A stretch of DNA of 36,683 nt from Candidatus Woesearchaeota archaeon. GTDB taxonomy: Archaea > Nanobdellota > Nanobdellia > Pacearchaeales > GW2011-AR1. The stretch spans positions 1 through 36,683 of the forward strand of contig CAZZCD010000002.1 in assembly GCA_964652735.1 (NCBI GenBank), in the 5' to 3' direction. Made by a program: the position numbers and the translations under genes. The notes below the pieces were generated by a model. The model worked only from the letters and a program-made list of their open reading frames with translations, ran no database searches and was not told the DNA's origin. Numbering within the stretch: the stretch's first letter is position 1; every line of letters begins with the position of its first letter. This document shows positions 1 through 27,167 of the stretch, piece by piece.

Positions 1-3000
1 ATTTCAACGGTGCAATTAGTCCTGTTACATTGTTATCATCTAAATAATAATTGCTCCAATCAGCATGGTCAAACCTGCTTGCAGTCATTCTATATGAAAC
101 TTCTCCTGCCTGGGTTCCGTGGATTGTTAAGGTGTTTTTCTCAGGGTTTTTTTCATACCAGACATCTCCATTAAATCCAGGGGTTAATATTATCTGGAGT
201 TTTTCCCAGTTCTCTCCAAAGTCTGTTGTCTGGTAAAATAGCCATAAATCAGAGCCTTTCTCTAGTTTGTCAAATTCAATTGTATAGTTGCTTTTCAGCA
301 TGACACTTCCTGTAACTTCTTCTTTTATCCCAACCATACCAGCCATATATGTTGCATAGTTCGTACCATCAATAGTATAAACAGGGTCAACTGTGCCGAC
401 TGTGATTTTGCTTACTTCGGTGATGGCATTGTTGTTCATATCAAGACCAGCACTAGTAATACGAAATATTTCATCATTACCAGTACTAAATGCCAAGGTA
501 TCAGCTGCATTACCAGGTCTGTATATTCCCGTGTCTCCATCATTTGTAAAAGTATATGCTGGATCACCAGCAGTAGAACTTCCATCTCCAAGCCGTAGTT
601 CATTTGCTATCCTCATATATCCAGCAAAAATAGATTCTCCTGTCCCGCTCACTGTCAAGTCGCCATCTATCTGCAGGTTTCCAGTAGAACCCAGATTCAT
701 CTTCTCAACATTATTAATTAAAAAACCAATATCAACATCTGTATCAAACCTAAGCGCCCAAGCAGCGTCATCATCCAAGAAACCAAATTCTGTACCTGTA
801 GCATATACATAACCATCTGCAACACCATCAGAACCAGCTAACTTAAATCCTGAAGCCGACGACGCACCTTTTACAGTCATTGTATTATAATCCCCAATTA
901 AAGTAGGGGTGGTTATTTCAGGTGAGGTCCCAAATACCCATTTTCCACTTCCTGTTTCATCTGAAACTCGTGTTGCCCAATTAGCAGAAGTTGTTGCAGT
1001 TATCTCTGTGTAATCAATTGCTGTTCCAAGTGTTGCTGCAACTGTTACTTTGTCTGTTGCTGCTCCTGTTGTTGTTATTCCTGTTCCTGCTTCAATTGTT
1101 GCAGTATTTCCACTAGAAATTGTCTGAGGAGTTCCAGAGGTTCCTGCAAGAGTCCAAGAACCATAATTATCAGAAGCTGAATCTGCAGTACAAGTAATTG
1201 TCCCTGCTGCACTTACAGAACTAACTCCTGTATTTGCTCCACAACTGCTTACTTCTAACCAGGCAGCTCCTGCATCTGTAATAGATCCTCCATTAATATC
1301 TAAACTTCCTTCAGCATCTATGTCTCCATCTTCATCAACTTCAAACTTTTGTACTCCCCCAACAGCTAATCCTAATAATGCATAGTCAGCTGTTGCACTA
1401 GCAGGATTAATGTAAACCGGTGCTCCTGAAGCAACTGTAGAAGAAGATAAATCTGTACTTGAAAACTTACCTGTCATTGTTTCATCTTGAGCAAGTGCTA
1501 AATACTGTGGATGGTCATCATCACCCAGACCACCTAAATCATCGTGATCAAAGTCTATCTCTCCAATAGAAATAGCTGTTCCTAATGTTGCTGCAACTGT
1601 TACCTTGTCTGTTGCTGCCCCTGTTGTTGTTATTCCTGTTCCTGCTTCTATTAATGCTGTATTACCCTGTGTAATTGTTTGGCCACTTCCACTAGTTCCT
1701 GCTAATGTGAAACTGCTCATGGTTCCTGTTCCTGTATCTCCTGCACAGTTTATTGTTCCGTCTGATGAGATACTGCTCACATACTGGTCAGCACTGCAAC
1801 CGCCATTGAAGAAGTTTGCTGTATCGTCATAAAGATTCCCGCCTCCTATATCCCAGTTACCATTAGTATAAAGACCAGATCCTGATTGGGATATGTAGTA
1901 ACTAGTCTGGAATGCAGTTCCAGTTCCTGGATAAATAGCTCCTTTAAAGTCAGTGTCATTATCTGTATAGAAAGTTCTGAAATTCTCCTGAACCCGATTG
2001 TTCATACCATAATGAGTGTATCCATTACCAGTGTACCAAATGCTTCCTCTTGCACTGGCCGCTTCTCCAAACTCAATGCCTGCACTGCCTGCGTCATTGC
2101 TCTCAATAAGTATCGTAGGGTCAGCATCATTATCTCCAATTTGTAACAATTCTGTTGGACTCGTCGTCCCTATGCCGACGTTGCCATTAACATATAGGCT
2201 TGCAGTTGAACCTTGGAGATTTGATGACGTGCCAATACCAACCTTCTTGTCAAAAAGGAAATTGCCCCATCCATCCCAGTACATCTTTCCAACTTGTGTA
2301 TCATCAGAGCGACTCGCATTTATTATAACCCTTTCATTATCATCTTCCAAGTGAATGTTTACTTCTTGATTAGCATTACCTAACTGAATATTCCCTGCAA
2401 CATGTAATTTTTCATCAGGGCTTGTCTGCCCGATGCCGACGTTGCCTTTCATATAAATTTCACCTGCCCCTTTAACATACATCAAATCAGACCCATCTTT
2501 ATCTTCAACTATTAAAGTTGTTTCAGTATTGCTATCTCCTGCCCGTATTCTAACACCATTACCAGTAGTAGCGTGAGTATTATCAAAACGTGCTATATAG
2601 TCTGCATTAACCGAATCAACTACATATAACTTATAATTACCAGGATTAGTCGTCCCTATGCCGACGTTTCCTGTTCCTTTTATTATCATAGACTCTTGTT
2701 CCGCAGTGCTATTATAAGTTACAAAATGCATGTCAATTAATGTACCACCAGGAGCGCGGGTATAAATCTTAGCATTATAGCTACCTTGGTTAAATCTTAA
2801 TTCAGTAGTTTCACCTACATCCCATGTAGGATTATGAAGTTCTACAATAGGATTTGATGTATCATAAACCTCCAAATTCGCCCCAGGACTAGTCGTCCCG
2901 ATGCCGACGTTTCCACCTGTTTCTATAACCATTCTTGGATTTGTAGCTAAATCATCTCCGCTTGCAAATGTAAAAGTATTGCTATTTGAATTATCTCTTC

Positions 3001-6000
3001 CAATAGCCCATCCTGCTGCTTGTGTGTCTCTAAATCTTATATCTGAATCACCTGTTCCACCACCATCAATAACTAAAACTGCATTAGCTGCATTTAATAA
3101 TTGCATAGTTCCTTCTCTTACATCTAACTTAGTCGCTGGACTCGTCGTCCCGATGCCGACGTTGCTCGTAATATTATCTATAGCCAAAGCAACTGAACTT
3201 GTCCCATAATTGTAAATCAGTAAATCACCTGAACTTACTGGACGATAAAGTTCCCATTGATAATTTCCATCTTCCATAAAAAAAATGCCTGCTTCTTCAT
3301 TATCAGGTGCATCTAAAAAAAGAAATGCATCTTGAGTAGAACTATTTATTAGTATGCCATCAAGAGCTGTGCTTGTTTCAACAGTTAATTTCTTAGCAGG
3401 GTTAGTTGTTCCGATGCCGACGTTGCCTAAAAAGTAATTATCGTTAGCAGATTCAGTCTGTCTAAAAGTAGCTATATTTGTAAGAGCTCTAGTATTATCA
3501 ATAATAGTAGTCCCATCTATAATAAAACGACTATCTGAACCATTTAACAAAAGGTTTCCTGTTCCTCCTATTTCTAATTGTTTGCTTGGACTCGCCGTCC
3601 CAATGCCGACGTTGCCGTCATTTTGGAATGTTGTTAAAATTGTTGTCCCATACGCTATTTTTATATCATTGCTATCAGCAAATATAGAATATGCATTTGC
3701 TTGACCAGTGTCATCTATAACAAAAGCAGGATTTGCTGAACCTTCAATTTCTAAAAATGTAGATGAACCACCATCTTCTCTTGTTGGACTCGTCGTCCCA
3801 ATGCCAACCTTATCAGTATTACTATCAACAAACAAAACACTTGAATCAACACTAAAGTTATTTGCTCCTAAAACAACATTTTTGAAAGCACCTGTATATG
3901 GAACATAAGTGTCTGAGATGTTTGTATCTTCTGCTCCGTAAATTGTTCCTGTTACATTCAAATCTCCCACAACATTTAATGTGTTTTGTGGGGTTGCTGT
4001 GCCGATGCCGACGTTGCCAGTGGTATACAACTGGTCTGTATATGTATTCTTCCAATATCTAATACTACTACCTAAATCTAAACTACTGTCAGCACTAGGT
4101 TTAAGAACAGCATTAACTTGGACAACACTTGTGGCTGAACCCAAATATAAATCAGAAGCTTTTGTTGTTATCAATGAATATCCTGTTCCATCACCAGAAG
4201 TATCTGTAATTTTTATTCCCCTACTATTTACACTATTAACAACAATGTCCAACTTCGCCGAAGGACTAGTCGTCCCAATGCCAACCTTATCAGTATTACT
4301 ATCAACAAACAAAACACTTGAATCAACACTAAAGTTATTTGCTCCTAAATCAACATTTTTGAAAGCGCCTGTATAAGGCACAAAATCACCTGTAACATTC
4401 ACACCATTAATATATGTATTATGCGCTACAATATCATTTGCAATAAAGTTGTGTGTTCCCTCTATTGCTAAATCATAAACATGTTGTGGCTCGTGAGTTT
4501 TAATTGAAACAATCTTGTCAAAGAAAATATCAGCAGAAACATTTAAATATTTATTACCAGTATCTTTAGTTATGGTTGAAGTTACTATATCAATACCTGG
4601 AAAATTGAAAGAGAAAATGCAAAGAAGTGGCATAGGACTACATGTATTAGTTGAAAGACTAATAAAACAATTAGAAGAAGAGAAAGAAATGATAGATTGG
4701 TCAGTTAAATTGCAAAGAGCTTCTAGGAAAGGTAGGTTTGATGAACTGAAAAGAAGAGGATTAGTATAAATGAAATTTGTAGTTGATACAAATGTGTTAT
4801 TAACATTTTTTTGGGAGGATTCTTTTACTAAAGGAATATTACTTGACCAAGATTTTGAATTCTTTGCCCCAGAATATGCGTTAGAAGAAATCAATGGGCA
4901 TATATCTGAAATATTGCAAAAAACAAACACCTCATTAGAGCAATTCAAAGAACTAAGAAGAGATTTAGCTATCTGTGTTGAATTTATTCCATTAGAAAAA
5001 TATTCAGAATTTCTACAAAAAGTTTCAGATATTTCAGATAAAAAAGATGTTGATTTTATCGCATTAGCACTAAAACTCAAACTTCCTGTCTGGTCTAATG
5101 ACAAACATCTTAAGCAACAATCTTTAGTTAAAATATTCACAACAGAAGAATTAGTTAAATCCTTAGAATCCTCATAATTTCCTAACTTAGGAACAGCAAT
5201 CTCCTCACCTTCTTCTAATTCACTAACTTTAACCCAACCATCCTCTGTTAAATAAGGATGATTCCCAGTTGTGTTAACAGCTCTGCCACTCTCTGTAATC
5301 AACTCATAAATAGGCTTTTCACCCATATCTAATAAAGCTTTGACTTTGTTTGAAACAATCTCACCTGTTTCTTCATCTAAACTCAAAACATATTCACCAG
5401 CTTCAATATCTTTAATCTGCTTCTCTGAACCGTCTGCCATTGAAATCAGGCTGTCTTCTGCAACACACAATCCTGTTACGTTTAAGTCTCCATCAACATT
5501 CAAGGTGTTTTGTGGTGTTGTCGTCCCGATGCCGACGTTTCCACCTTCTAAGATTGTCATCTTCACATCATTACTTGTAGCAAAATATAATGGTTTGGCT
5601 TCTAACACATTAATCATACCATATTCTGCTGCATTATATCCGATATTCATACCATCTGAAATAAGAGCTCCTGTTTCATCTGTTGTAAATTTAATATATG
5701 CCTGACCTAAGCTGTGAATCTGAAGTGGGCGTGTTGGACTCGCCGTCCCGATGCCGACGTTGCCGTTAATCGCTAAAGCCGTACCCGCCGCCAAAGATTG
5801 ATCTGCCACATAGCCAATTACCTGGGCTCCTGATGATTGAACTGCCCAAGTATAAGATGACCCCGAACCAATATGTAACAATCCAAGAGGATTCGTCGTC
5901 CCGATGCCGACGTTGCCGTCTCCTCTTACGAGAAAATAGTTGCTTGAACCTGTTCGGTCTTGAATATAAAATGCTTTATCAGAAGAATTTGTCCCAGCTT

Positions 6001-9000
6001 TTATCCATGGTCCAAAACTCTGACCCGTTGTACTTCCTGCAGTAATTTCAGAAACATAATAATTATCCGCACCTGTCAATTCAAGCGCTCGTTGAGCGGC
6101 TCCTGCTAAGATTTCTACTTTATTACTTGGATTCGTAACTCCAATGCCGACGTTTCCTTCAACAATCAATCCATTAGCAGGAGGTTGTATATTATAATAA
6201 CCTCCTACCGAGAGACCAGAATTACTATGAAGTCCCATACCATACGCACCTTCATAAAATCTCATAAAATTAATGCCGGTAGTATTCACATTTTGTATAA
6301 ATGCTTGCACCCCTCCTGACGCTGAGTTTTCCAATCTTAAAGTAGGGTTATTATCCTTCAAATGAAGTAAGGAAGAAGGACTACTCGTCCCAATCCCAAC
6401 CATATTAGTATTTGAATCAACAAACAAAACACTTGAATCAACACTAAAGTTATTCGCTCCTAAATCAACATTGTAAAGAGCACCTGTATATGGAACATAA
6501 GTGTCTGAAAGATTTGCATCTCCTGCTCCGTATATTGTTCCGGTCACGTTTAAATCTCCAACAACATTCAAAGTGTTTTGTGGTGTTGTTGTGTTAATGC
6601 CGACGTTGCCGCTTCCTATAATAGCCAAAGCATCTCTGAAATCAGTACCATTAGATTGACTTAGATAAAGGTTACCATATATGTCATTACCTTTTGCTAT
6701 AATTTGAGTTGTCCCAAAGGCAGTATTAAATTGTCCCCAAGTATGATAATCATCTCCACCAGTATACCTATAAACCCGTATTCCATCAGTACTTCTATTT
6801 TCAGCACCACTAATTTTATTTAAGGTTAAATGAGCAGGAAGTGTTGAAGCGTCCCCGATGCCGACGTTTCCTCCTTGTTGTATTCTCATTGCCTCTGCAA
6901 CAGTACCACCTTGCTCTACTGCAAAAGCTAAATCACTATCGGTAGAACCTGTATCAATACCTGATATTCTGGCTATATTACCAGAACCTAAATTAAATAA
7001 AAGATTAGCAAATGAGTTAGTAGCACCATCTTCGTTTTGTATCATAATAGTTGCATCTGCTTCCTGACCACTAGAACTACTAGCATCATACGCTGTGGCA
7101 TCATCCTTCCTAACAACTAATAATGATGCTGGTGTTGTCGTCCCGATGCCGACGTTGCCACCTGTTTCAACCGTTACCAATTCCTGACTATTCATAGTAT
7201 TCACAGCCCCGTAAGCAATTTGGAATTTAGTATCATCATTCATACCTAATTTCCATGAATTAGCTTCTGCTGCTCCACCGCCAACTTCATAATAAATTTC
7301 ACCTGCTGCACTTTTTCCTCTAACTTCTATGGAAACATCTGCTGCATTTGTAAATGATGCTAATTGCTCATTATCTCCTGTAACTTCTAAAACATGCCCA
7401 GGTGTCGCCGTCCCGATGCCGACCCTATCAGTATTACTATCAACAAACAAAACACTTGAATCAACACTAAAATTATTTGCTCCTAAATCAACATTTTTTG
7501 TTGCACCTGTGTAAGGCACAAAATCCCCTGTAACATTCACACCATTAATATATGTATTATGAGCAACAATGTCATTTGCAATAAAGTTGTGTGTGTTTTC
7601 TATTGCAAGGTCATAAACATGCTGTGCTGGGTGTTGTTCTATTGAAGTTATTTTTTCCCATTTTATTATGTTTTGCCCATAATCAGGCACTGCTATTTCC
7701 ATTCCTTCTTCTAAATAAATTACTTTAAGCCACTCTACACCATCAGAAAGTTTTAAATATTCCTTGTTACTATTTTTATTTATGGCTGAATTAATAACTT
7801 CCCCTGAAACTGAATTAGATTTTAAATTAATGTCTAAAGCTGTAGTTCGATTAATGAAACAAGACATATCTGTAAGATTTAAACAAACAAGAGAAATAAC
7901 TGATGAAGATTGGGAATTTTGTGAGCAAATTAATTGGCATCCTGTTGATGAACTACCTATGAAAGAAGAATTTGTTAAAGAACTAAGAAAAAGAGAAAAA
8001 GGTCCGTTCATTAAATTTAATTCTGTGGATGAACTATTTAAAAAATGAGTTATACTCAAATTATTCATCCCAAATGTCAAAGAGAAATTAATAAGGTCTG
8101 TAGAAAAAATCCTATTCTTGAAAAAGTCCTTAGAAAAAAGATGGATGAAATCATCCAAAACCCCGGTCACTATAAATCTCTCAGACATGAGCTTGCTGGA
8201 GAAAGAAGAGTTCACATCCTCAAAAGTTTTATCCTCAAATTCAAAATTGATGAAGTCAACAAAATAGTTATGTTCCTCGCCTTCAGGCACCACGACAAAG
8301 CCTACTGATTTTTCCCCTAATTTTTCCTCAGAAGATAATTTAACCAAATAAGGATGATTTCCTGTTGTATTAATGCTTCTACCAGATTCTGTGGTTAACT
8401 CATAAATAGGCTTTTCACCCATATCTAATAATGCTAACACTTCATTAGAAACAATGTCTCCTGTTTCTTCATCTAAACTTAAAACACGCTCTCCCATTTG
8501 AACATCTTTAATCTCTTTTTTAGTTCCATCTGCCATTGAAATCAGAGAGTCTTCTGCAACACACAATCCTGTGACATTCAAATCTCCATCAACATTCAAT
8601 GTGTTTTGTGGTGTTGATGTGTTGATGCCGACGTTGCCGTCATTTTGAATCCTGACCCGTTCGTTCCCAGCCGCTTGACCTCCAGAATAAAATCGTATAT
8701 TACCAGAAGTATGACGTGCTATGATACTCAAACCCCCACTTAAATCTCCATCTGCTTCAATTGCTGCACCATCTTGCAGATATGCCCCAATAGGAGTATA
8801 TGCACTACCAAATGTAAAGAGATTCAACCAACCGCCATCGGCTTGAATTGAAGCTAGAGAACGTGAGTTGTTAGTTGGTTCTTTTACATAGAGGTCACCA
8901 TCATAAACTTCCAACTTCGCCGAAGGACTCGCCGTCCCAATTCCGACGTTACCACCTTCTAAAATAACCATATGCTCAGCTAATGTTCCAGTTCCTATAT

Positions 9001-9478
9001 TTTTCTTAAATATTAATCTTTCATTATCACTTTCAATGCCAACTATCCATTCATCTGTAGGAGACACTGAAGTTCCACCACTAGAAAGATACAAGTTTGA
9101 ATCTCCTCCACCTGCTTCGTGAATTTGAATAAGTCCTTGGACATCAAGTGCTTGATGTGGAGCAGTCGTCCCGATGCCGACGTTTCCTGAACTATCTAAA
9201 TTAATCCCTGTAGTTCCAGCATACTTAATATTCATTACATCATTACCTTGGTTATAATATAAATAACCTTTATTAGTGCCAGCATCTACTTGGAATCTTA
9301 TACCTACATCTGTATCTGCTGAATTAGCATCTGTATCTGAATTTATATCAATCCATGCTTCTCCTGTATCCGCTACATCTAACTTCTGTGAAGGACTCGT
9401 CGTCCCGATGCCGACATTACTGTTGTTATCAACATAAACATCTTCCTGATGCACGAAAGAATCGTGATATTCTGTTCT
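1..9478 (-). CDS. Giant repeat-rich secreted/surface fibre protein, 3'-partial (continues past the window start); hosts two inteins
   Basis: Plus-strand triplets in phase 2 mod 3 contain no TTA/CTA/TCA. I checked this by hand for 2-1650, 4430-5281, 5912-6154, 7742-8563 and 9380-9478. For the remainder it is implied by the absence of any in-phase minus-strand ORF call. An ORF with no stop inside the window is not listed, as shown by the unlisted partial pyrH at the right edge. The translation is Gly/Thr/Asn/Val-rich with 23 in-frame G-N-V-G-I-G-T-T-S-P modules and a DDHPQYL motif. Its repeat units match those in ORF 9479..12646. Confidence 0.8.
1020..1648 (-). repeat. Direct duplication of a 74-nt core (1020-1093 and 1575-1648) within a roughly 555-nt module repeat
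   Basis: The two copies differ at 4 positions. Both encode ...EAGTGITTTGAATDKVTVAATLGTA... Confidence 0.8.
4542..4549 (+). promoter_or_regulatory. TATA box of the intein-2 VapBC operon
   Basis: TTTAAATA (context TTTAAATATT) lies 30 nt upstream of ATG 4572. Confidence 0.5.
4572..4769 (+). CDS. VapB-like antitoxin (65 aa) embedded antisense in intein 2
   Basis: The ORF track calls a TTG start at 4515, which would lie inside the intein C-lobe. ATG 4572 is 30 nt downstream of TTTAAATA. The N-terminus MVEVTISIPGKLKEKM is typical of a small RHH/AbrB-type antitoxin. Its TAA stop is immediately followed by the vapC ATG. Confidence 0.6.
   Translation: MVEVTISIPGKLKEKMQRSGIGLHVLVERLIKQLEEEKEMIDWSVKLQRASRKGRFDELKRRGLV
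4770..5177 (+). CDS. vapC: PIN-domain toxin VapC (135 aa) embedded antisense in intein 2
   Basis: The N-terminus is MKFVVDTNVLL (first acidic residue). It continues ...APEYALEEI..., ...DVDFIALALKL... and ...VWSNDKHL, giving the PIN acidic-residue pattern. Size and position directly after a small antitoxin ORF also fit. Confidence 0.8.
   Translation: MKFVVDTNVLLTFFWEDSFTKGILLDQDFEFFAPEYALEEINGHISEILQKTNTSLEQFKELRRDLAICVEFIPLEKYSEFLQKVSDISDKKDVDFIALALKLKLPVWSNDKHLKQQSLVKIFTTEELVKSLESS
7752..7759 (+). promoter_or_regulatory. TATA box of the intein-1 TA operon
   Basis: TTTAAATA (context TTTAAATATT) lies 30 nt upstream of ATG 7782. The VapBC cassette has the identical box and spacing. Confidence 0.5.
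7782..8048 (+). CDS. Putative antitoxin (88 aa) of the intein-embedded RelE-type module
   Basis: The ORF track calls a TTG start at 7764. I prefer ATG 7782, which lies exactly 30 nt downstream of TTTAAATA. Its stop overlaps the toxin start (ATGA at 8045-8048). It is small and acidic, and its C-terminus (...REKGPFIKFNSVDELFKK) resembles that of the antitoxin at 13866 (...YEKGRFVELK). Confidence 0.6.
   Translation: MAELITSPETELDFKLMSKAVVRLMKQDISVRFKQTREITDEDWEFCEQINWHPVDELPMKEEFVKELRKREKGPFIKFNSVDELFKK
8045..8308 (+). CDS. RelE/ParE-family toxin (87 aa) embedded antisense in intein 1
   Basis: The pattern ...NPGHYKSLRHELAGERRVHILKSFILKFKIDEVNKIVMFLAFRHHDKAY matches the RelE/ParE layout (NP..x..L...L.G..R..i...f.l.y.i.......v....HH..aY). 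Its size is as expected and it has a 4-nt overlap with the upstream antitoxin. Confidence 0.75.
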   Translation: MSYTQIIHPKCQREINKVCRKNPILEKVLRKKMDEIIQNPGHYKSLRHELAGERRVHILKSFILKFKIDEVNKIVMFLAFRHHDKAY

Positions 9479-12400
9479 CTATAGATATTGTGCTTTTACT
9501 TCATCTGCTGATAATGCCCGGTTGTAAATGCGAACATCATCTAAACTCCCATTTAAATAATTACCCCCCCTATTCCCAATTGATGTAAGAGTAAAAGATG
9601 AAAAATCAGTAGATGTACCGCTAACATCATTTTCACCATTTAAATATATAATTGTTTGATTGTTTGTCTCATCATAGGTTAATGTTATAAATACCCACTC
9701 ATTTAAATTCCAAGGATTACTATTTAAATAATCACCTTCGTCTGCTAGTGCCCAATGTATATGATTATATAAATAAACATCCAAACCATCATTGGTAGAT
9801 GTAAATATTCCTGTCCAATATGCTTTAGTATATTGATAAAGCCATAATTCAGCACTAAATGACCCTGATATTGTTCTTCCTACACTAATATAATCATCTC
9901 CATCAAATTCAAAATCACCACCATTATTGAATCCACCTGATGAATTTGCTGTTGCTCCGTGATTTGTTCCGTGTTGATTGTAAATAGAACTATCTAAAAC
10001 AGTTTCGCTTCCTGCTGAACCTACAAGGTTTTCAGAATTAAAATTCATCGCTAAAATTAATCCTTCATCTGAAATCTCATGAATGCTTTTTGTATTTGTA
10101 AAACCATTAACATCTAATGTATAATTGGGACTAGTCGTCCCGATGCCGACGTTGCCTCCTGATTCAATTCTAAGAAGTTCTCCACCATTATATTGAAATA
10201 TATAATTACCTCCACTTATCCAATAACGGTCTAAAACAAAATCACCATTAGCATCATAAAACTCAATCGTCCCATAATGAGTTGCATCACTGCCCCCACC
10301 TATTTTTTTACTATTAGGTATGCTTAATTGATAAAGAGGACTCGTCTCCCCGATGCCAACGTTACCGCCTGCTTCTATTCTCATCTTTTCAGACCAACCA
10401 CTCTGTCCATAAGCACTATAAGTCCCAAACACTAAATCAGCAGGGGCATCAGAATCTCCAAAAGCAATATATGAATCAGTAGCATCTGCTGTTAAGATTA
10501 TAAAATTATCATTTGTATCCTCTTTTATCCCAAATGTAGCACTGGCTTTAGTTATATCTAAAGTTTTGGTTGGACTAGTCGTCCCAATCCCAACCATATC
10601 AGTATTTGAATCAACAAACAAAGTATCTGTGTCTACAGTCAGATTCTTCTTCAGCTCTGTGTTTCCGTAAACAATAAAATCATTAACTACACTCATGTTC
10701 TGCTTTGTCAGATTCATAGAAGTTATATTATAAACATAAATTGTCTGTGCATAAATACTGCCTGCGTCAATTGTAACACCTCCAGAAGCCCAGTCTCCAT
10801 CTACATCCAAGCTTCCTGCAATATCAAAATCCCCTACTACAGAAGTGTTCAAAGGCATGAAGAAAGTTGAGTCATAGCCATCCAGGGTCTCAGAACCCTG
10901 AGCAGATATATTAATGCATGTCAAAGTATCTCCAATTATTTGAACAGCATGTCCAGCAGGACAGGCAGAAGGATAATTTGTAAGATTTGCCCATCCGAGC
11001 AAACTTGTTCCATAATTCAAAGCAACTGTTTCTGTATAACCTTCTCCAGGTGTTCCTGAAACACTTATTCCACTTCCAGAAGCAACATCTCCGACATAAT
11101 TTCCAGTTGTATCTGTTCCAAGAACAACAGAATCTGGCTGCACAGCTGTAACTCCTGTGCTTGAAATATTAATATCTCCAGAAACAGCTTTTGTTTCCCA
11201 GGCAGTTCCAGAACCAATCAAAATATTTCCAGAAGTTGCAGTGGTTGTTCCAAGAGATGAGCCATTTATCTTAACAACATCTGGATTTGGATAAGTTCCA
11301 GATAAATCACCACCTGCAGTCTGTCCTTCTTTAATATAATTATTATCAAAATAAGTAGTATTTACATTTATAGTAGTTGTTCCGCCCAAAGCCACAGAAC
11401 CTCCTCCTATCAAACCAGTGCCTGCAGTAATAGTTAAAGTTGAATTAGCCAAGTCTACATTTCCAACAGCTCCGTCAGTTATCATAGCACTAGTTATTGA
11501 GTCCACTTGGTCTTCATTCACATACCTAATATCTCCTGTCTGGTTAAGCTTAGTCTCATTAAGAATAAAATAATTACTTGCATTCTTATAGATATAAATC
11601 CCTCCTGCATAATATAAGGTATCTGTATTAATATCTTCAGAACACTCCCAAGCAGAAGAAGTAGCATTCCACTTAGCAATCTCTGTATCTGCACAGCTCA
11701 ATCCTGCAAGAGTGTCATTCTCTCTAAGATCAATAGTCTGATTAAGCTGGCTTTCTGAAAAACTTAAAGTTGAACCGTCAAATGTCAGATAATCGCTGTC
11801 TTCTGTCCAATTAAATCTTCCTTTGAACCAGTCTGCTGTCACATTTCCTGTAACATTAACATCACCACCAACCCTGATATCTCCTGTAACATTTATATCT
11901 CCAGAAACATTAACATCTTGAACAAATAAACTTGTTATTCTATTTATCAAGCTTCCTAAAAAGCTGAAAAATCCTGAACTAGCACTTACATTATAACTTC
12001 CTAAAGTAAGATTAGAATCCACACTAACCTCACTCAAATTAACATCTGTTGCCCTAAATGCATAAGGAACTCTTCCAAGCTGAGATACATTCTTCAAAGT
12101 TCCATCTCTGTAATAACATAAGTAATACTGGGTGTCATAATCTAGTAAACTGAGATTCCCTCCTCCTGAGCCAACTGTTGGAAGATAAAGTGAAACAATT
12201 CCTCGTGTATCTGTAGTTTGTGAGGTAGAATGGTTATAAACAACATCAGGACCACAAAGTGTACTTGAATTATCTGTAATATTAAATCCAAAAGTAAACG
12301 TTCCTGTTTCAATTGTTCCATTAGAAAATGTTGTCTGAAGATTTATATGAAAAGTGTCATTGATTGGAGCAGCAGAAACCATGCTTAAAAAGAATATCAA

Positions 12401-12646
12401 ACTTGAAGCCAAAAATAAATTTATTAATAATTTCTTAGAACTTGTAAATTTTGGATTTTGTTTTTTAACAGTTTTTTTATTTTTCTGTTTAGATGGATAT
12501 TTTTTAAACTCTATCTTTTTCTTACTAACTGAAATATACCATACACTACTTGACATACAATTATTAATCAAAGACCAATCATAAAAATTAGGAACCATTT
12601 CAGGTCTAAAACAGGGTATTTTGGGCCTTTTGTATGTTTTTTCCAT
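9479..12646 (-). CDS. N-terminal part of the giant surface protein (signal anchor, fibre repeats, LamG-like jelly-roll domain); ends at a TAG in the same phase as the downstream 9.5 kb frame
   Basis: ORF track gives 1055 aa. An ATATAAAA box lies 29 nt upstream of ATG 12646. There is a hydrophobic anchor LLINLFLASSLIFFLSMVSAAP and more than 30 N-x-S/T sequons by eye. Three NVGIGT(T/E)SP-type modules are present. The C-terminal ...GSLDDVRIYNRALSADEV is typical of LamG/concanavalin-like domains. Confidence 0.85.
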   Translation of the reverse strand: MEKTYKRPKIPCFRPEMVPNFYDWSLINNCMSSSVWYISVSKKKIEFKKYPSKQKNKKTVKKQNPKFTSSKKLLINLFLASSLIFFLSMVSAAPINDTFHINLQTTFSNGTIETGTFTFGFNITDNSSTLCGPDVVYNHSTSQTTDTRGIVSLYLPTVGSGGGNLSLLDYDTQYYLCYYRDGTLKNVSQLGRVPYAFRATDVNLSEVSVDSNLTLGSYNVSASSGFFSFLGSLINRITSLFVQDVNVSGDINVTGDIRVGGDVNVTGNVTADWFKGRFNWTEDSDYLTFDGSTLSFSESQLNQTIDLRENDTLAGLSCADTEIAKWNATSSAWECSEDINTDTLYYAGGIYIYKNASNYFILNETKLNQTGDIRYVNEDQVDSITSAMITDGAVGNVDLANSTLTITAGTGLIGGGSVALGGTTTINVNTTYFDNNYIKEGQTAGGDLSGTYPNPDVVKINGSSLGTTTATSGNILIGSGTAWETKAVSGDINISSTGVTAVQPDSVVLGTDTTGNYVGDVASGSGISVSGTPGEGYTETVALNYGTSLLGWANLTNYPSACPAGHAVQIIGDTLTCINISAQGSETLDGYDSTFFMPLNTSVVGDFDIAGSLDVDGDWASGGVTIDAGSIYAQTIYVYNITSMNLTKQNMSVVNDFIVYGNTELKKNLTVDTDTLFVDSNTDMVGIGTTSPTKTLDITKASATFGIKEDTNDNFIILTADATDSYIAFGDSDAPADLVFGTYSAYGQSGWSEKMRIEAGGNVGIGETSPLYQLSIPNSKKIGGGSDATHYGTIEFYDANGDFVLDRYWISGGNYIFQYNGGELLRIESGGNVGIGTTSPNYTLDVNGFTNTKSIHEISDEGLILAMNFNSENLVGSAGSETVLDSSIYNQHGTNHGATANSSGGFNNGGDFEFDGDDYISVGRTISGSFSAELWLYQYTKAYWTGIFTSTNDGLDVYLYNHIHWALADEGDYLNSNPWNLNEWVFITLTYDETNNQTIIYLNGENDVSGTSTDFSSFTLTSIGNRGGNYLNGSLDDVRIYNRALSADEVKAQYL

Positions 12647-12667
12647 TTTGCTTGGTTACCTTACAAT

Positions 12668-12675
12668 TTTTATAT
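12668..12675 (-). promoter_or_regulatory. TATA-like box for the giant gene (leaderless geometry)
   Basis: The minus strand reads ATATAAAA, starting 29 nt upstream of ATG 12646. Other genes in the window show the same spacing. Confidence 0.45.
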
Positions 12676-12785
12676 GTAAGTAAAATGAAAAAGTTGTTTT
12701 ATTGACGGTAAAATTCCTGTTTTTCCTCGTGTAAGTAAAATTTATAAAAGCAGAAAACATTAATTTATTAGTAAAAAGGGGAAAG

Positions 12786-12977
12786 ATGAAGCAACCAATT
12801 AAGATATATCTAAGTTCTGAAACAAAGAAAAAGCTACTTCAGAAGGCAAATGAAACAGGGTTTTACGACCGTGGCGCTTTGACAAAGTTTATAGAAAAAA
12901 TAGCTACAGAAGATATTTGTTTCTTAGATGAAAATTTGAGGAAAATGCTTAAGGTGCTATTCCCTGGTAAGGATTAG
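12786..12977 (+). CDS. Small ribbon-helix-helix (CopG-like) protein
   Basis: IKIYLSSETKKKLLQKANETGFYDRGALTKFIEKIA fits a beta-strand plus two-helix RHH pattern. TTTATAAA lies at 12741-12748. Confidence 0.5.
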   Translation: MKQPIKIYLSSETKKKLLQKANETGFYDRGALTKFIEKIATEDICFLDENLRKMLKVLFPGKD

Positions 12978-12980
12978 GAA

Positions 12981-13205
12981 TTATAATAATTCCAGAAATT
13001 CTTCTTTGCTTAATTTTACTTGTTTTAATATCTCTCTCAAAAGTCCTTTGCCTAATTTTTCATTTCCATGAATTGGAATGATAGTCCTTCTTCCATCAAG
13101 ATGTTTGAGTCTAACATGGCTACCTTTTCCTTTAATCATTTCAAAACCTTTTTTCTCTAAAATCTTACATAATTCTTTGCCAGAAATACGCACTAACTTA
13201 GCCAT
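12981..13205 (-). CDS. hicA: HicA mRNA-interferase toxin
   Basis: ...SGKELCKILEKKGFEMIKGKGSHVRLKH.DGRRTIIPIHGNE.LGKGLLREILKQ matches the HicA/YcfA signature. It lies immediately downstream of hicB. Confidence 0.85.
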   Translation of the reverse strand: MAKLVRISGKELCKILEKKGFEMIKGKGSHVRLKHLDGRRTIIPIHGNEKLGKGLLREILKQVKLSKEEFLELL

Positions 13206-18182: not shown

Positions 18183-18725
18183 TCAAAAAAACTTATCTAA
18201 AACAGATTTACTTAATTGTTTGAAAGCATCACATTCGTGCTTTAAATGATAAGAAAACTTTATTTCAAATCCTATGTTCTCAACGTTTTTTCCAATTTCT
18301 TGAACAGCTTTTATAGCAGGGACAAAATCTCCATCTGTAGAAACTAATATTGCAGTATCATAGGCATTGTTATAAGCTAATTTTACCATATCAACAGCAA
18401 GATGAATGTCATCTTCTTTAACCTGATAATCTATTTTTCCATCAATCTTAACTTTTTGCATTCTACATAAAATAAGCTTAAAATTTGGAATCTTTTTCAA
18501 TTTTTCAAAGAATTTTTGCTGTTTCCTATAGGTTATTCCATCTTTTTTCCTATCTAAAGGTGCAGTATAATAATAAACCCTTATCTTTTTCCTTCCTGAA
18601 ACAAGATGCCTAGAAAATCTATCAAAATCAAATTTCATAAAAGTTTTAGATGCTCCATATATTTCTTTAAGAATATGGTAAAAATTACTTCCATCAATAA
18701 AAATAATTATTCTATCAGTCATCAC
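18183..18725 (-). CDS. NYN/LabA-like (PIN-related) domain protein
   Basis: The motifs are IIIFIDGSNFYH... and ...AILVSTDGDFVPAIKAVQEIGKNVENIGF. Confidence 0.8.
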   Translation of the reverse strand: MMTDRIIIFIDGSNFYHILKEIYGASKTFMKFDFDRFSRHLVSGRKKIRVYYYTAPLDRKKDGITYRKQQKFFEKLKKIPNFKLILCRMQKVKIDGKIDYQVKEDDIHLAVDMVKLAYNNAYDTAILVSTDGDFVPAIKAVQEIGKNVENIGFEIKFSYHLKHECDAFKQLSKSVLDKFF

Positions 18726-19016: not shown

Positions 19017-20144
19017 ATGAAATTTAACATTCTGCAATATTTACCTAACACAACAAAAATAATGATAGATAAAGAAATAAGAAAAGAATTATTTTCTAAT
19101 AAATCTATAAGTGAATGGAGTAAATCTCTTAATGTTCCTTTAAAAAACATAAGCAGATATATCAATGGGACAAGATCCATTCCGATAACATTATTAACTG
19201 AATTGGCCAAATCAAAGAAGATAAACAGTAAATTACAAGATAAAATAAAACTTAAAATAACTAAAAGCGGGAATTATCTCAGAATTGGCCCAATAATTAA
19301 AATAGATGAAGACTTGATATATGTAGCAGAATTGATTAAAGGGGATGGACATATCACCCCCAATTTCTGGAGGATAATCTTTGTGAATAATAATGGATTT
19401 TTAATAACTTATGTTCATAATTTTTTCAAGTCTTTAGGAATAAAACAAAGCCAGATAAGCCTTATTAAAAGAAAAGATGCTAATTTTCTTACTATAAGAT
19501 CATCCTTATTAGCCATATTATTCAATAAAATTTTGGAGGTTCCATCAGGAAGAAAAAAAGAATTAAATATTCCTGAATTCGTACTTTCAGACAGAAATTT
19601 AAGTATCGCGGCGGTTAGGGGAGCATTTGATGCTGAAGGACATATAACTTCAAAAGGTTCTAGAAGGATTTCTATAACATCAAATAGTAAAAAATGGTTA
19701 ACCCAATTAAAACAAATCTTAGAGAAGTTAAATATAAATTCAAGAATATTTGAAGACAAATCAAAAAGAAAAGAGCCACTCTACAGGCTCTTTATATCCC
19801 ATAGACAAAATCTCATAAAATTTCTAAAAATAATCAAACCTTTACACACGAAAAGAAAAGAAAAATTAAAAGAAAGATTATCTGATTATACAAAAAATCC
19901 TCAAAAAGAATTTCATAAGAGAATATTGCTCTCAATAAAAAAGGGAAATACCAGAAGAAGAGAAATTGCTAGCGATATAAAACAGGATTTAATATTAATT
20001 GGGAACAATATTAATTGGTTAAAGAAAAAAAGGTATATAGATTCTTTCGAAAAGATTTATACAAACAAAGGATGTTACCATAAATACAAAGTTACTGGAA
20101 AAGGGGAAGGATATCTAGAAAAATCACTTTCTTTCTTCGATTGA
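19017..20144 (+). CDS. Free-standing double-motif LAGLIDADG homing-endonuclease-like protein with N-terminal HTH
   Basis: Two dodecapeptide motifs are present: YVAELIKGDGHI and IAAVRGAFDAEGHI. The N-terminal SISEWSKSLNVPLKNISRYINGTRSIP looks like an HTH. The 3' end overlaps the thrS 3' end convergently by 21 nt. Confidence 0.8.
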   Translation: MKFNILQYLPNTTKIMIDKEIRKELFSNKSISEWSKSLNVPLKNISRYINGTRSIPITLLTELAKSKKINSKLQDKIKLKITKSGNYLRIGPIIKIDEDLIYVAELIKGDGHITPNFWRIIFVNNNGFLITYVHNFFKSLGIKQSQISLIKRKDANFLTIRSSLLAILFNKILEVPSGRKKELNIPEFVLSDRNLSIAAVRGAFDAEGHITSKGSRRISITSNSKKWLTQLKQILEKLNINSRIFEDKSKRKEPLYRLFISHRQNLIKFLKIIKPLHTKRKEKLKERLSDYTKNPQKEFHKRILLSIKKGNTRRREIASDIKQDLILIGNNINWLKKKRYIDSFEKIYTNKGCYHKYKVTGKGEGYLEKSLSFFD

Positions 20145-25118: not shown

Positions 25119-27167
25119 ATGAAAAAAATGAGGCTATTATTAACAGCATTAATGTTAACCCTATTTCTATTCCCTTTAATATCTGCAAAAATAATAATCA
25201 ACCAGCAGCCAGAAGAAGTTTATAATTTAGGTGATGTAATTTCTATTCCTATAACAATAGTGGCTTCTGTAGATATGGTTGGTAGTTTAAACATTGATTT
25301 GATGTGTATGGGGAGGGAAGTTAATTATAAAATTGGGATACCTTCCTTATCCTTTGGTGAAGAATATAGAACAGATATTTATGTTCCTTTAATAAAAAAT
25401 GAAATTGGCGAGCTTAAGGGAATATGTAAAGTAAAGGCTTATCTTGGAGAAGATTATGTTCTGACAAATGAATTTAGGATTTCTGATTTGATTTTCTTGG
25501 AAACTGATTTTCAGGTTCTTGAATTTAATCCTGGAGGAAATCTTTTAATTGAAGGTCAAGCAACCATGGAAAACAGCAAATCAGTAAATGGGTTTATAGA
25601 ATTATCTCTTGTTGAAGGAAACGCTTCAATATTAAGTCATCTTGAAACAATAAGCAATGGATTTTTTTTAATAAATAGCTCTCTTCCAAAAGACATAAAG
25701 GCAGGAGCTCTTCTTTTGAAATTAAACGCATATGAATTAGACACTAGTGGAGAAAAAACAAACAAGGGATTTTTAAATCAAAATATAAAAATAAATCAGG
25801 TTCCAACAAATCTTGAAATAATTTTTGATTCAGAAAGGGTAGAGCCAGGAACAAATCTAAAAGTTAAAGCTGTTCTTCATGACCAAACAGGAGAAAAAAT
25901 ACCTTCTATTTCCACGATAATAATAAAGAATGAAAATGATAAAATTATGGAACAAATTGCTGAAATCGCAACAGATGAATTTTTTGAATTTCCAATATTG
26001 TATAATGAAGCACCTTCAAAATGGAAAGTAATTTTTACTTCAAACGAATTAACAAGCGAATCATTCTTCACGATAATTGAAAAAGAATCAATAGATATTG
26101 AAATAATAAACAGAACATTAACTATTACAAACACAGGGAATGTTCTATATAATAAAATAGCTTTGATTAAAGTTGGTAATGAAACCTTGAATATTAATAT
26201 TTATCTTGAAGTTGACAAAAGCCAGAAATATATCATTACAGCTCCTGATGGTGAATATGAAGTAGAAGTCATAGCAGGAGATAGTGTGGTTTTAGAAGAG
26301 GTCATGCTTACAGGAAAAACAATAGATGTAAAAAAAGCACCAGGGACGATTGGAAGTCTTGTAAAATATCCTGTTGTCTGGATTTTTGTGATTCTAATTC
26401 TTGGATTTGTTGTTTTTCTCATATTTAAAAAGGGTTCTAAGAAAACTTTCATAGGATATCCATTTTCTAAAAACAAAAGAGATAAAAAAGATAAGATTAA
26501 AAGCCAAAAAGAAGGTGTTAAAGGAAAATTTATGCCATTAGTAAAAGGCTCTCTTGTTAATTCAAAAAATAAGGCAGAACTTTCTCTTTCAATAAAAGGA
26601 GATAAACAAAATGTAAGTGTTATTGCCCTTAATATAAAAAATCTCAAAGAGGTCCAGTCAAAAAAAGGAAATACAGAAGCAACTCTACAAAAAATAGTTA
26701 ACATTGCCGAGGAAAATAAAGCAGCAACATATGAAAGTCACAATACTTTGTTTTTTATTTTGGCTCCGACAAAAACAAGAACCTTTAAAAATGAAAAAAT
26801 AGCTTTGGAACTTGCACATAAAATAAAAGAAATACTTGCACATCACAACAAAATGTTTAAAGAGAAAATAAATTTTGGAATTTCTCTTAATTATGGAACA
26901 ATAGTTGCAAAACAAGACCAAGATTCACTTAAATTCATGAGTTTAGGAACATTAATAACTGTTGCAAAAAAGATATCTTCTCTTGCAAACGAAGATATCT
27001 TATTAAGTGATAAAATGAATGATATACTTAGATCTCATGTAAAAACAACAAAACAAGAAAAAAGTGGTATGGATGTTTATTCTATAAAAGGAATAAAAAA
27101 TGTTGAAGAACACAAAAAATTCATAAGAACTTTTTTAGACAGGATTGAAGGTAAAGAGAAGAAATAA
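25119..27167 (+). CDS. Membrane protein: signal peptide, large extracellular domain, one TM, and a cytoplasmic degenerate nucleotide-cyclase-like domain
   Basis: The N-terminus is MKKMRLLLTALMLTLFLFPLISA and the TM is YPVVWIFVILILGFVVFLIF. The C-terminal ...VSVIALNIKNL...INFGISLNYGTIVAK....KFMSLGTLITVAKKISSLANEDILLSDKM resembles a class III cyclase fold. TTTATAAA lies 29 nt upstream of the ATG. Confidence 0.75.
   Translation: MKKMRLLLTALMLTLFLFPLISAKIIINQQPEEVYNLGDVISIPITIVASVDMVGSLNIDLMCMGREVNYKIGIPSLSFGEEYRTDIYVPLIKNEIGELKGICKVKAYLGEDYVLTNEFRISDLIFLETDFQVLEFNPGGNLLIEGQATMENSKSVNGFIELSLVEGNASILSHLETISNGFFLINSSLPKDIKAGALLLKLNAYELDTSGEKTNKGFLNQNIKINQVPTNLEIIFDSERVEPGTNLKVKAVLHDQTGEKIPSISTIIIKNENDKIMEQIAEIATDEFFEFPILYNEAPSKWKVIFTSNELTSESFFTIIEKESIDIEIINRTLTITNTGNVLYNKIALIKVGNETLNINIYLEVDKSQKYIITAPDGEYEVEVIAGDSVVLEEVMLTGKTIDVKKAPGTIGSLVKYPVVWIFVILILGFVVFLIFKKGSKKTFIGYPFSKNKRDKKDKIKSQKEGVKGKFMPLVKGSLVNSKNKAELSLSIKGDKQNVSVIALNIKNLKEVQSKKGNTEATLQKIVNIAEENKAATYESHNTLFFILAPTKTRTFKNEKIALELAHKIKEILAHHNKMFKEKINFGISLNYGTIVAKQDQDSLKFMSLGTLITVAKKISSLANEDILLSDKMNDILRSHVKTTKQEKSGMDVYSIKGIKNVEEHKKFIRTFLDRIEGKEKK

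Follow-up and report, generated by a model that had tools for sequence, protein, structure and literature searches.

Genes A and B, two adjacent minus-strand genes at the start of contig CAZZCD010000002.1 (contig C2) of the Candidatus Woesearchaeota archaeon assembly GCA_964652735.1, encode fibre-like proteins in which a GC-rich motif of 26 nucleotides, typically coding for the peptide NVGIGTTSP, recurs in frame. The window analysed here is the first 36,683 bases of that contig; the assembly, labelled G000 in our comparisons with other genomes (G numbers), has 478,485 bases, is 71% complete and has a GC content of 31.7%. We confirm that the recurrence of the motif lies far beyond chance or codon preference. 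With a probability of about 0.55, we interpret it as a recombination-homogenised module junction, at which short-tract gene conversion or recombination would keep the motif DNA alike and which would also be the joint for duplicating or swapping modules.

Motif copies in genes A and B

Positions 2-12646 of the window are occupied by two open reading frames (ORFs):

2..9454, minus strand: gene A, a giant fibre-like ORF of 3151 residues that runs off the contig start; 23 motif copies and one degenerate copy; two Hint/intein inserts
9479..12646, minus strand: gene B, 1055 residues; N-terminal region in common with a relative of the same genus; three motif copies; C-terminal Laminin_G_3 domain

Gene A starts at a GTG 25 nucleotides past the stop codon of gene B (9479-9481), ten codons ahead of a motif copy, and has no N-terminal anchor of its own.

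Translation of the two ORFs bears out the 26 in-frame copies, of the form xVGI(G/N), that had been reported in the initial annotation, at the same coordinates (2157-2182 to 10572-10597), and a looser pattern adds a 27th, degenerate copy, KVGIGTSSN, at about 2220-2245. The typical copy, as given by the majority of copies, reads AAC GTC GGC ATC GGG ACG ACG AGT CC; we refer to this spelling as the word. With up to three mismatches the 26-mer matches 15 times, always on the minus strand, and not once in 100 shuffles. Its 18-mer core, AACGTCGGCATCGGGACG, occurs eight times exactly, 12 times with at most one mismatch and 17 times with at most two, all within genes A and B and nowhere else in the 478,485-base assembly. 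The copies, in the direction of translation, are as follows.

10572..10597, minus strand: second kind (NTDM VGIGTTSP), ATG GTT GGG ATT GGG ACG ACT AGT CC; first motif of gene B, where homology to G007 ends
10338..10363, minus strand: AAC GTT GGC ATC GGG GAG ACG AGT CC
10128..10153, minus strand: exact 18-mer, AAC GTC GGC ATC GGG ACG ACT AGT CC
9393..9418, minus strand: AAT GTC GGC ATC GGG ACG ACG AGT CC; ten codons into gene A
9159..9184, minus strand: exact 18-mer, ending ACG ACT GCT CC
8925..8950, minus strand: AAC GTC GGA ATT GGG ACG GCG AGT CC
8610..8635, minus strand: VGIN type, left half as in the word (AAC GTC GGC ATC), right half A-rich (AAC ACA TCA ACA CC); intein 1 begins 14 codons on
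7401..7426, minus strand: NTDR VGIGTATP, AGG GTC GGC ATC GGG ACG GCG ACA CC
7131..7156, minus strand: exact 18-mer, ending ACG ACA ACA CC
6843..6868, minus strand: AAC GTC GGC ATC GGG GAC GCT TCA AC
6582..6607, minus strand: VGIN type, AAC GTC GGC ATT AAC ACA ACA ACA CC; paralogous site without intein
6378..6403, minus strand: second kind, ATG GTT GGG ATT GGG ACG AGT AGT CC
6129..6154, minus strand: AAC GTC GGC ATT GGA GTT ACG AAT CC
5889..5914, minus strand: exact 18-mer, preceded by GGC and ending ACG ACG AAT CC
5736..5761, minus strand: exact 18-mer, ending ACG GCG AGT CC
5514..5539, minus strand: exact 18-mer, ending ACG ACA ACA CC; followed by intein 2
4263..4288, minus strand: second kind, AAG GTT GGC ATT GGG ACG ACT AGT CC
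3990..4015, minus strand: AAC GTC GGC ATC GGC ACA GCA ACC CC
3786..3811, minus strand: second kind, AAG GTT GGC ATT GGG ACG ACG AGT CC
3588..3613, minus strand: AAC GTC GGC ATT GGG ACG GCG AGT CC
3399..3424, minus strand: AAC GTC GGC ATC GGA ACA ACT AAC CC
3138..3163, minus strand: AAC GTC GGC ATC GGG ACG ACG AGT CC, the sole exact 26-mer
2886..2911, minus strand: exact 18-mer, ending ACG ACT AGT CC
2643..2668, minus strand: AAC GTC GGC ATA GGG ACG ACT AAT CC
2418..2443, minus strand: AAC GTC GGC ATC GGG CAG ACA AGC CC
2220..2245, minus strand: the 27th, degenerate copy (DKK VGIGTSSN), AAG GTT GGT ATT GGC ACG TCA TCA AA; coordinates derived from the residue number
2157..2182, minus strand: AAC GTC GGC ATA GGG ACG ACG AGT CC; final copy, followed by the C-terminal region

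The left and right halves of the word occur in independent combinations. AAC GTC GGC ATC is followed by GGG ACG ACG AGT CC or by AAC ACA ACA ACA CC, and GTT GGS ATT is joined to GGG ACG ACG AGT CC; each half travels with its own module type.

The motif peptide

Judged by its sequence, the motif peptide is the putative capping-loop motif of trimeric β-helix fibres, which include phage tail fibres and the mosaic adhesive trimer (MAT) proteins of Bdellovibrio. V, G and I are present in 26/26 copies, Pro(+8) in 25/26 and Leu(+12) in 22/26, in agreement with the loop consensus V-G-(I)-G/N-T-x-x-P-x-x-x-L. In the available passages of Caulton et al. (2024, PMC10769870), a peptide with the consensus V-G-G/N-pi-x-x-P-x-x-x-L caps the edges of such fibres; the related structures are PDB 8OND (Bd2133) and 8OJN. 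A block of gene A modules matches the solved Bdellovibrio fibre Bd2133 (PDB 8OND, E 9.6e-9) in an alignment that pairs motif copy with motif copy, and parts of genes A and B match PHROG 9942, 'tail fiber protein', with E 1.5e-21 and 2.9e-20. Pfam identifies no S74 domain in genes A and B, only the Hint/intein families and Laminin_G_3; the extreme C-terminus of gene A lies beyond the contig.

Silent-site conservation

The codons of the word are the rarest or second-rarest synonymous choices of the genome. Their fractions in 259 other long ORFs are 0.224 for AAC, 0.077 for GTC, 0.080 for GGC, 0.107 for ATC, 0.162 for GGG and 0.039 for ACG, with a product of about 9e-7 per copy. The idea that they are simply the codons preferred genome-wide, raised in the initial annotation as the alternative, is contradicted by this rarity.

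Third-position G+C (GC3) reveals how sharply the feature is bounded. At the six codons of NVGIGT it is 0.62-0.96 (0.96, 0.81, 0.96, 0.62, 0.92 and 0.81 in order over the 26 copies), compared with about 0.1-0.3 at synonymous sites in the flanks. It drops to 0.42, 0.12 and 0.04 at the three codons after NVGIGT, with 0.04 at the equally conserved Pro(+8) and 0.27 at the conserved Leu(+12), so that the GC island spans only about 6-7 codons (about 21-26 nucleotides). The genome as a whole has a GC3 of 0.216 and the modules between words 0.09-0.32; these modules have an ordinary AT-rich codon usage, and their protein identity is 22-36%. The motif copies differ at 1.16 of 6 third positions, although the median ungapped identity of their flanks is 0.10.

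At the conserved residues Pro(+8), Leu(+12) and Val(+14) the codons are the usual AT-rich ones, with same-codon fractions of 0.44, 0.42 and 0.55. Codon optimisation or translational accuracy at conserved residues is therefore ruled out, because conserved Pro, Leu and Val nearby are not recoded. Nor is the homogenised tract due to recent duplication, given the divergence of the modules and the heterogeneous codons of these neighbouring residues. Codon rarity, the third-position profile and the per-locus control for codon usage described below together bear out the earlier proposal of a nucleotide-level constraint, or homogenisation, on top of the protein-level constraint.

Locus-specific dialects

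Copies of the motif resemble each other more within a locus than between loci. In four word-bearing genomes the copies differ at 2.24 of 6 third positions within a genome and at 2.83 between genomes (permutation p=0.002). A scan for the exact 18-mer is ascertained on the word, so a fully degenerate pattern was also run on metagenome and viral contigs, giving 169 and 223 distinct copies. These unbiased scans give 2.87 differences within loci and 4.57 between them (of 7), and 2.43 and 4.26 for loci that have no copy of the GC-rich word.

Because shared codon usage alone could yield dialects, the difference to be expected was computed, for each locus with at least three copies, from the codons with which its own flanks encode these amino acids. 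The observed difference lies below this expectation in 35/37 loci (median 2.83 compared with 4.22, Wilcoxon p=2e-7), and is 1.92 compared with 3.99 in G000. Homogeneous dialects that use only A and T at third positions (motif GC3 0.0) also exist; locus L394, for example, has five copies spelled GGA AAT GTA GGT ATT GGT ACT, and in the three AT-dialect loci L394, L308 and L431 the flanks are only 13-20% identical. Since AT-rich dialects are homogenised too, homogenisation would be a general property of the motif DNA, and homogeneity is uncorrelated with motif GC3 (Spearman 0.02). To judge from these silent sites, the pattern is the probable signature of concerted evolution confined to the motif, and not simply of GC drive.

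Distribution among relatives and across domains

Of 41 genomes from the same order, 21 have matches to a degenerate N-V-G-I-G-T pattern; the reversed control pattern has none. G011, G021, G027 and G036 spell the peptide like G000, G011 with the full word. The dialect of G004 is mostly GTA/GTC GGC ATC GGC ACG ACG and that of G007, G016 and G010 is AAC GTC GGA ATA GGA ACA, whereas G033 (28 copies in one ORF of 3111 residues) and G038 (14 copies) use common, freely varying AT-rich codons. Both styles of spelling coexist within one genome in G004 and G024. Free variation of synonymous sites in orthologues, which the initial annotation had named as evidence to the contrary, is therefore found in some relatives (G033, G038) and not in others (for example G011). 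The free codons of G033 and G038 indicate that the peptide does not need GC-rich codons, which argues against an obligatory role in translation or folding.

The exact 18-mer occurs in at least 151 stretches of the genome collection. The bacterial record titles name lineages of the candidate phyla radiation (CPR)/Patescibacteria, Gammaproteobacteria, Acidobacteria, Planctomycetes, Elusimicrobia, Bacteroidota and Omnitrophica, and the archaeal titles Woese-, Nano- and Aenigmatarchaeota and methanogens. Among the matches listed, 248/251 are in frame as NVGIGT (open frames of at least 80 residues), and 85 loci have a flank GC3 below 0.45. Metagenome copies from ORFs with a flank GC3 below 0.40 show a bimodal distribution of agreement with the word at third positions (31, 30, 25, 9, 9, 3, 6 and 8 copies for 0 to 7 matches), and copies within one metagenome locus agree with each other. 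The commonest 21-mer among the 130 metagenome copies with a flank GC3 below 0.45 is GGC AAC GTC GGC ATC GGG ACG (8 copies in 5 loci; the next commonest has 3 copies), and no rival GC-rich spelling is found among these 130. The word's codons are common in GC-rich ORFs, where GGG and ACG are still favoured over GGC and ACC. In a blastn comparison of genes A and B with all collected loci only 40-60 nucleotides around the word match, and no transfer is seen.

Motif copies as probable module joints

The larger internal repeats of the window, the longest being 218-293 nucleotides, end 0-4 nucleotides from a word, and the repeat pair 3786-4018 and 6378-6610 (86%) extends exactly between two successive words. 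Homology between gene B and a gene of G007 covers residues 6-691 (48.6%) and ends at the first motif (residues 681-690). Gene A is common with G021 only over the C-terminal 230 residues. The laminin G tip and the stop codon of gene B sit between the words at 10153 and 9418. Across all collected loci, 16 of the 48 internal ends of segments with 85-99.5% identity are found no more than 15 nucleotides from a motif centre; the expectation was 2.9, and 1000 draws never gave more than 8. Only 13 locus pairs enter this test, many of them from the same contigs and not independent. Of the roles proposed in the initial annotation, that of a recombination anchor fits best, with the larger repeats and the homology ending at the motif; the evidence for it is indirect.

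In G007, which belongs to the same genus, a single ORF of 2672 residues unites a B-type N-terminus with the module array. A single fibre gene may have been divided into genes A and B when a tip cassette entered between two words (9418-10153).

Public sequence data from four (X1-X4) of five listed runs were used as assembled contigs (k=31). In run X1, 70 of 117 aligned contigs match the window only partly and then run on unlike it. Among the contig joints listed, the shorter side always has 20-34 letters, that is, the word itself.

Over window positions 1500-11000 the contigs of these runs break at several words, and their summed depth is several-fold higher in bins with exact words. Such genes are therefore prone to fragment, and possibly to mis-join, in short-read assemblies.

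A shufflon, with site-specific inversion, or a diversity-generating retroelement is not indicated, all copies being direct, on the minus strand and in frame. The Pfam scan covered 20 of the window's 21 ORFs with at least 150 residues, all but 26201..26704 (minus strand), which lies inside the ORF 25119-27167, and matched none of them to a recombinase, an integrase or a reverse transcriptase; the smaller window ORFs scanned were the four within the inteins.

Polarity of the third positions

In the word, third positions are occupied by C as far as ATC and by G once GGG is reached, with the switch at the same centre. In exact 18-mer copies from low-GC3 ORFs (106 copies, 71 loci), the C:G counts at four-fold sites that were not ascertained are 31:3 at position -2 and 97:1 at -1, and 0:80, 2:29, 14:46, 9:27 and 10:20 at +6 to +10. 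The unbiased set (330 copies, 197 loci) gives C/(C+G) values of 0.91, 0.65 and 0.62 at -1, +1 and +2, and of 0.35, 0.12, 0.31 and 0.17 at +4 to +7, compared with a background of 0.57. The A/T pattern at third positions is inconsistent, and Ser stays AGT.

The word could be imagined as a cross-domain DNA adapter, a standard GC-rich junction with which viruses, CPR bacteria and DPANN archaea would duplicate, swap and even exchange modules, the dyad-like polarity possibly being a trace of recombination initiated at the centre of the motif; we regard this as speculative and unlikely. After a central break both 3′ tails would invade, and T:G mismatches on the invading strand would be repaired to C:G. 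Such repair would give C on the left and G on the right of the coding strand, leaving the AGT on the right untouched.

Origin of the motif and alternative explanations

In the module-junction interpretation that we prefer, the 26-mer would be the DNA of a capping loop that closes one structural module and opens the next in a trimeric β-helix fibre. Repeated short-tract gene conversion among copies, within and between fibre genes, would keep the synonymous sites alike over about 20-26 nucleotides, and whole modules would be duplicated or replaced, or would receive a tip domain as a cap, with this same stretch as the joint. We infer that the copies are homogenised by conversion, which would serve or cause module shuffling.

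Several points weigh against this interpretation. The coincidence of segment ends with the motif is expected under any modular history, because an alignment through a module naturally extends into the conserved motif and stops there. The contigs aligned to genes A and B contain no usable structural variant and no recombination event that is seen directly, the joints being of 20-34 letters only. In G033 the 28 copies within one gene are not homogenised (4.51 differences compared with 4.42 expected), so that copy number alone is insufficient. The identity tracts, at 18-34 nucleotides, do not exceed the lengths of homology commonly cited for RecA-type recombination. In neutral multigene-family theory unbiased conversion does not slow the drift of the family as a whole. 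Conversion by itself could therefore neither preserve a GC-rich word at a genomic GC content of 32% nor give CPR bacteria and archaea identical words. The persistence of the word (GGC AAC GTC GGC ATC to the left of the centre, GGG ACG ACG to the right) against AT mutation pressure, and its dominance across domains, are not accounted for by conversion and would call for a bias in conversion or for selection, such as selection in favour of stable pairing over a very short homology. The silent-site enrichment in G+C is confined to the tract, as GC-biased conversion predicts; as a whole account, however, such bias is ruled out by the AT-only dialects, the retained AGT (Ser) codon and the C-left/G-right polarity, and these features contradict a simple GC bias.

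Import of short patches from a community pool would be an improbable source of the shared spelling. The motif DNA would be overwritten from other organisms or viruses of the habitat, GC-rich ones included, with only the motif similar enough to recombine. The spread of the exact 18-mer over the 151 or more stretches of bacteria and archaea, including the 85 low-GC3 loci among the matches listed, is in line with such import, as are the first rank of the word among the 130 low-GC3 metagenome copies (8 copies and 5 loci compared with 3), the 70 of 117 contigs of run X1 that match partly and then diverge, the raised summed depth at word bins, and the commonness of the word's codons in GC-rich ORFs. 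However, no transfer is seen, the blastn match being limited to 40-60 nucleotides around the word, and an archaeon would have to take up DNA very frequently and recombine it in very short patches. The preference for GGG/ACG over GGC/ACC, which is also present in GC-rich ORFs, and the genome-specific dialects would be left unaccounted for.

A direct, sequence-specific function, as a site of DNA binding or modification, a small RNA structure, or a run of slow codons that pauses the ribosome at module boundaries, has in our judgement only a small chance of being correct. It would agree with the identity of the word across domains, where one word dominates and not any GC-rich spelling; with the preference for GGG and ACG on the right and for GGC and GTC on the left in every GC background; and with the use of the genome's rarest codons. 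On the other hand, G033 and G038, of the same order and architecture, use free AT-rich codons, both classes of spelling occur within G004 and within G024, and homogeneous AT dialects are not predicted by a site or pause model.

The RNA forms of this explanation can be examined more closely. The inverted repeat CGTCG-N9-CGACG noted in the initial annotation does occur; for a GC-rich encoding of the peptide this is nothing unusual, and a selected hairpin is unsupported. The third bases of Val and Thr do not covary in 392 unbiased copies; the A/T subset has an odds ratio of 0.61 (p=0.18), and the C/G subset is without compensation, GTG occurring 30 times with ACG and 5 times with ACC. The word folds at -8.5 kcal/mol, and 19% of the 589,824 synonymous encodings of GNVGIGTTSP, or 44-56% at equal GC3, fold better; five copies folded in their own context give differing structures (z -0.4 to -2.5). 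Rfam gives no match at E up to 1 in positions 1-13000. A trans-acting complement is not evident either, no 10-12-mer of the word being found elsewhere in the assembly on either strand save a 14-nucleotide piece at C1:22809, in a fibre-like gene, and one 10-mer on contig C15. Translational pausing, which had also been suggested, is unlikely: G033 and G038 encode their 28 and 14 copies with common, varying codons, AT dialects are homogenised too, the conserved Pro and Leu nearby are not recoded, and tRNA genes with the anticodons CCC, GCC and CGU, matching GGG, GGC and ACG, are among the 19 tRNAs found in this 71% complete genome.

Passive legacy, in which modules were recently duplicated or recently imported from a GC-rich donor and the motif has not yet decayed, is very unlikely. 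The word does resemble the spelling of a GC-rich genome, and the common codons of AT-rich genes at some positions are transition products of the word (GGT at -1 and +2, GGA at +4). Synonymous sites inside and outside the motif should nevertheless decay at equal rates, whereas those in the flanks are fully native (module GC3 0.09-0.32 compared with 0.216 for the genome), the module proteins are 22-36% identical, and the codons for the conserved Pro, Leu and Val close by are heterogeneous (0.44, 0.42, 0.55). Module divergence, native flank GC3 and the blastn reach of 40-60 nucleotides thus contradict recent import or duplication. That the giant gene is an assembly chimera joined at shared k-mers is hardly credible: the k=31 contigs are indeed interrupted at several words (5763, 7158 and 9422 being contig ends) and, among the pieces listed, some junctions overlap by the word only, but the longer listed pieces with no difference cross the words at 2182-2668, 2668-3163, 6607-6868, 8635-9184 and 10153-10597 at similar X1 depths of 4-7, module GC3 matches the genome, and the same pattern is present in many independent assemblies.

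Inteins and other features of the window

Gene A is interrupted by two inteins:

7556-8563, minus strand: intein 1, residues 298-633, C...HN then T
4418-5467, minus strand: intein 2, residues 1330-1679, C...HN then T

The module NVGI(N/G)T.TPQNTLNV.GDLNVTG occurs four times in gene A. The copies at 8563-8635 and 5467-5539 are interrupted by an intein right after ...NVTGL, and those at 6403-6607 and 3811-4015 are uninterrupted, which suggests that inteins may have spread or been lost between paralogous sites within one gene. Both inteins hold a pair of small plus-strand genes where a homing endonuclease domain would sit (ORFs 4515-4769 and 4770-5177, and 7764-8048 and 8045-8308). One pair consists of an ORF of 84 residues and a PIN_2 protein (E 3.9e-19), the other of an ORF of 94 residues and a ParE-family toxin (E 6.2e-6, above the cut-off); from their sequences these pairs look like toxin-antitoxin cargo. 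The fibre frame over the gene pairs has no stops in 233 and 190 codons, compared with 20-33 stops in the other two minus-strand frames, and both strands therefore appear to be kept coding.

A third fibre-like ORF of 340 residues (G000:C1:22270-23289) has one GNVGIGTTGP copy with the intermediate spelling GGC AAC GTT GGG ATT GGG ACT, and the 14-nucleotide piece of the word at C1:22809 is read as S-V-G-I-G-I.

The neighbours of genes A and B in the window include a threonyl-tRNA synthetase with an archaea-specific editing domain, a class I (Trp/Tyr) tRNA synthetase, a pyruvate phosphate dikinase and glycosyltransferases, and the window is therefore archaeal chromosome. The Trp/Tyr-type synthetase ORF (23170-24732, minus strand) has an N-terminal match to an Asp/Glu/hydantoin racemase (residues 1-132, E 5.7e-12), an unusual fusion, provided that the start is genuine. 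At 18183-18725 an NYN-domain protein (E 6e-26) is encoded beside a LAGLIDADG gene (19017-20144); the latter and the end of the threonyl-tRNA synthetase gene overlap.

Significance and comparison with known systems

That fibre and adhesin genes evolve by module swaps at conserved motifs is already known. Apparently new are the homogenisation of the motif's silent sites into locus dialects and the presence of one GC-rich spelling across archaea, bacteria and viral contigs, even at very low GC3. We found no description of codon-level conservation of the motif, of silent-site dialects or of a cross-domain GC-rich spelling in a search confined to full-text libraries, in which most subscription journals are missing; abstracts retrieved with the string VGIGT, as far as available, mostly concern microcin J25 or other antimicrobial peptides, and none of them concerns fibre genes. 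If the word is a true junction, it would show where one module gives way to the next in giant, uncharacterised surface proteins, thousands of them, of episymbiotic CPR/DPANN organisms and phages, and would provide a testable handle on how these vary their attachment organs, a natural splice point for fibre engineering, and an account of the fragmentation of such genes in short-read assemblies. The persistence of a GC-rich word under strong AT pressure, with C/G polarity, also bears on the existence of biased or strand-asymmetric conversion in prokaryotes.

Short repeats anchor segmental gene conversion in antigenic-variation loci such as the vls cassettes of Borrelia, with their direct repeats, and the pilS genes of Neisseria, with their conserved blocks. 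The likeness lies in nucleotide-conserved anchors that flank variable cassettes of a surface protein; the fibre genes differ in that no silent cassette array or dedicated machinery is evident and the anchors lie inside one long reading frame. The fibres of the MAT/S74 type share the loop consensus, and gene A matches Bd2133 in sequence; the available passages of the MAT study (PMC10769870) treat the motif as protein only, whereas here its codons are the feature.

Another parallel is with GRINS (genetic repeats with intense nucleotide skews) of polyketide synthase genes, defined in the parts of Nivina et al. (2021, PMC8256042) available to us as duplicated regions of more than 500 bp that are more than 80% identical and have mean absolute skews above 0.15. 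As far as that account goes, both are modular genes recoded mostly at third positions, with strand skew and an association with gene conversion between modules. The fibre genes are not a member of that class, their longest internal repeats being 218-293 nucleotides; the island is about 21-26 nucleotides with a single C-to-G switch, and its hosts are AT-rich archaea, CPR bacteria and phages.

The closest concept is that of the distal tail-fibre and adhesin genes of T-even phages (the His boxes of gp37 and the glycine-rich motifs of gp38), for which recombination between conserved motifs is described (Tetart et al. 1996, 1998, as cited in the available part of Trojet et al. 2011, PMC3157838). 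There, as in genes A and B, short conserved motifs part the hypervariable segments of a host-recognition fibre. The T-even case differs from the present one, which is known from sequences and not from crosses or recombinants, in that here a chromosomal gene of a DPANN-type archaeon carries about 27 copies, with silent sites in locus-specific dialects, and one GC-rich dialect is common to bacteria, archaea and viral contigs, in AT-rich backgrounds too.

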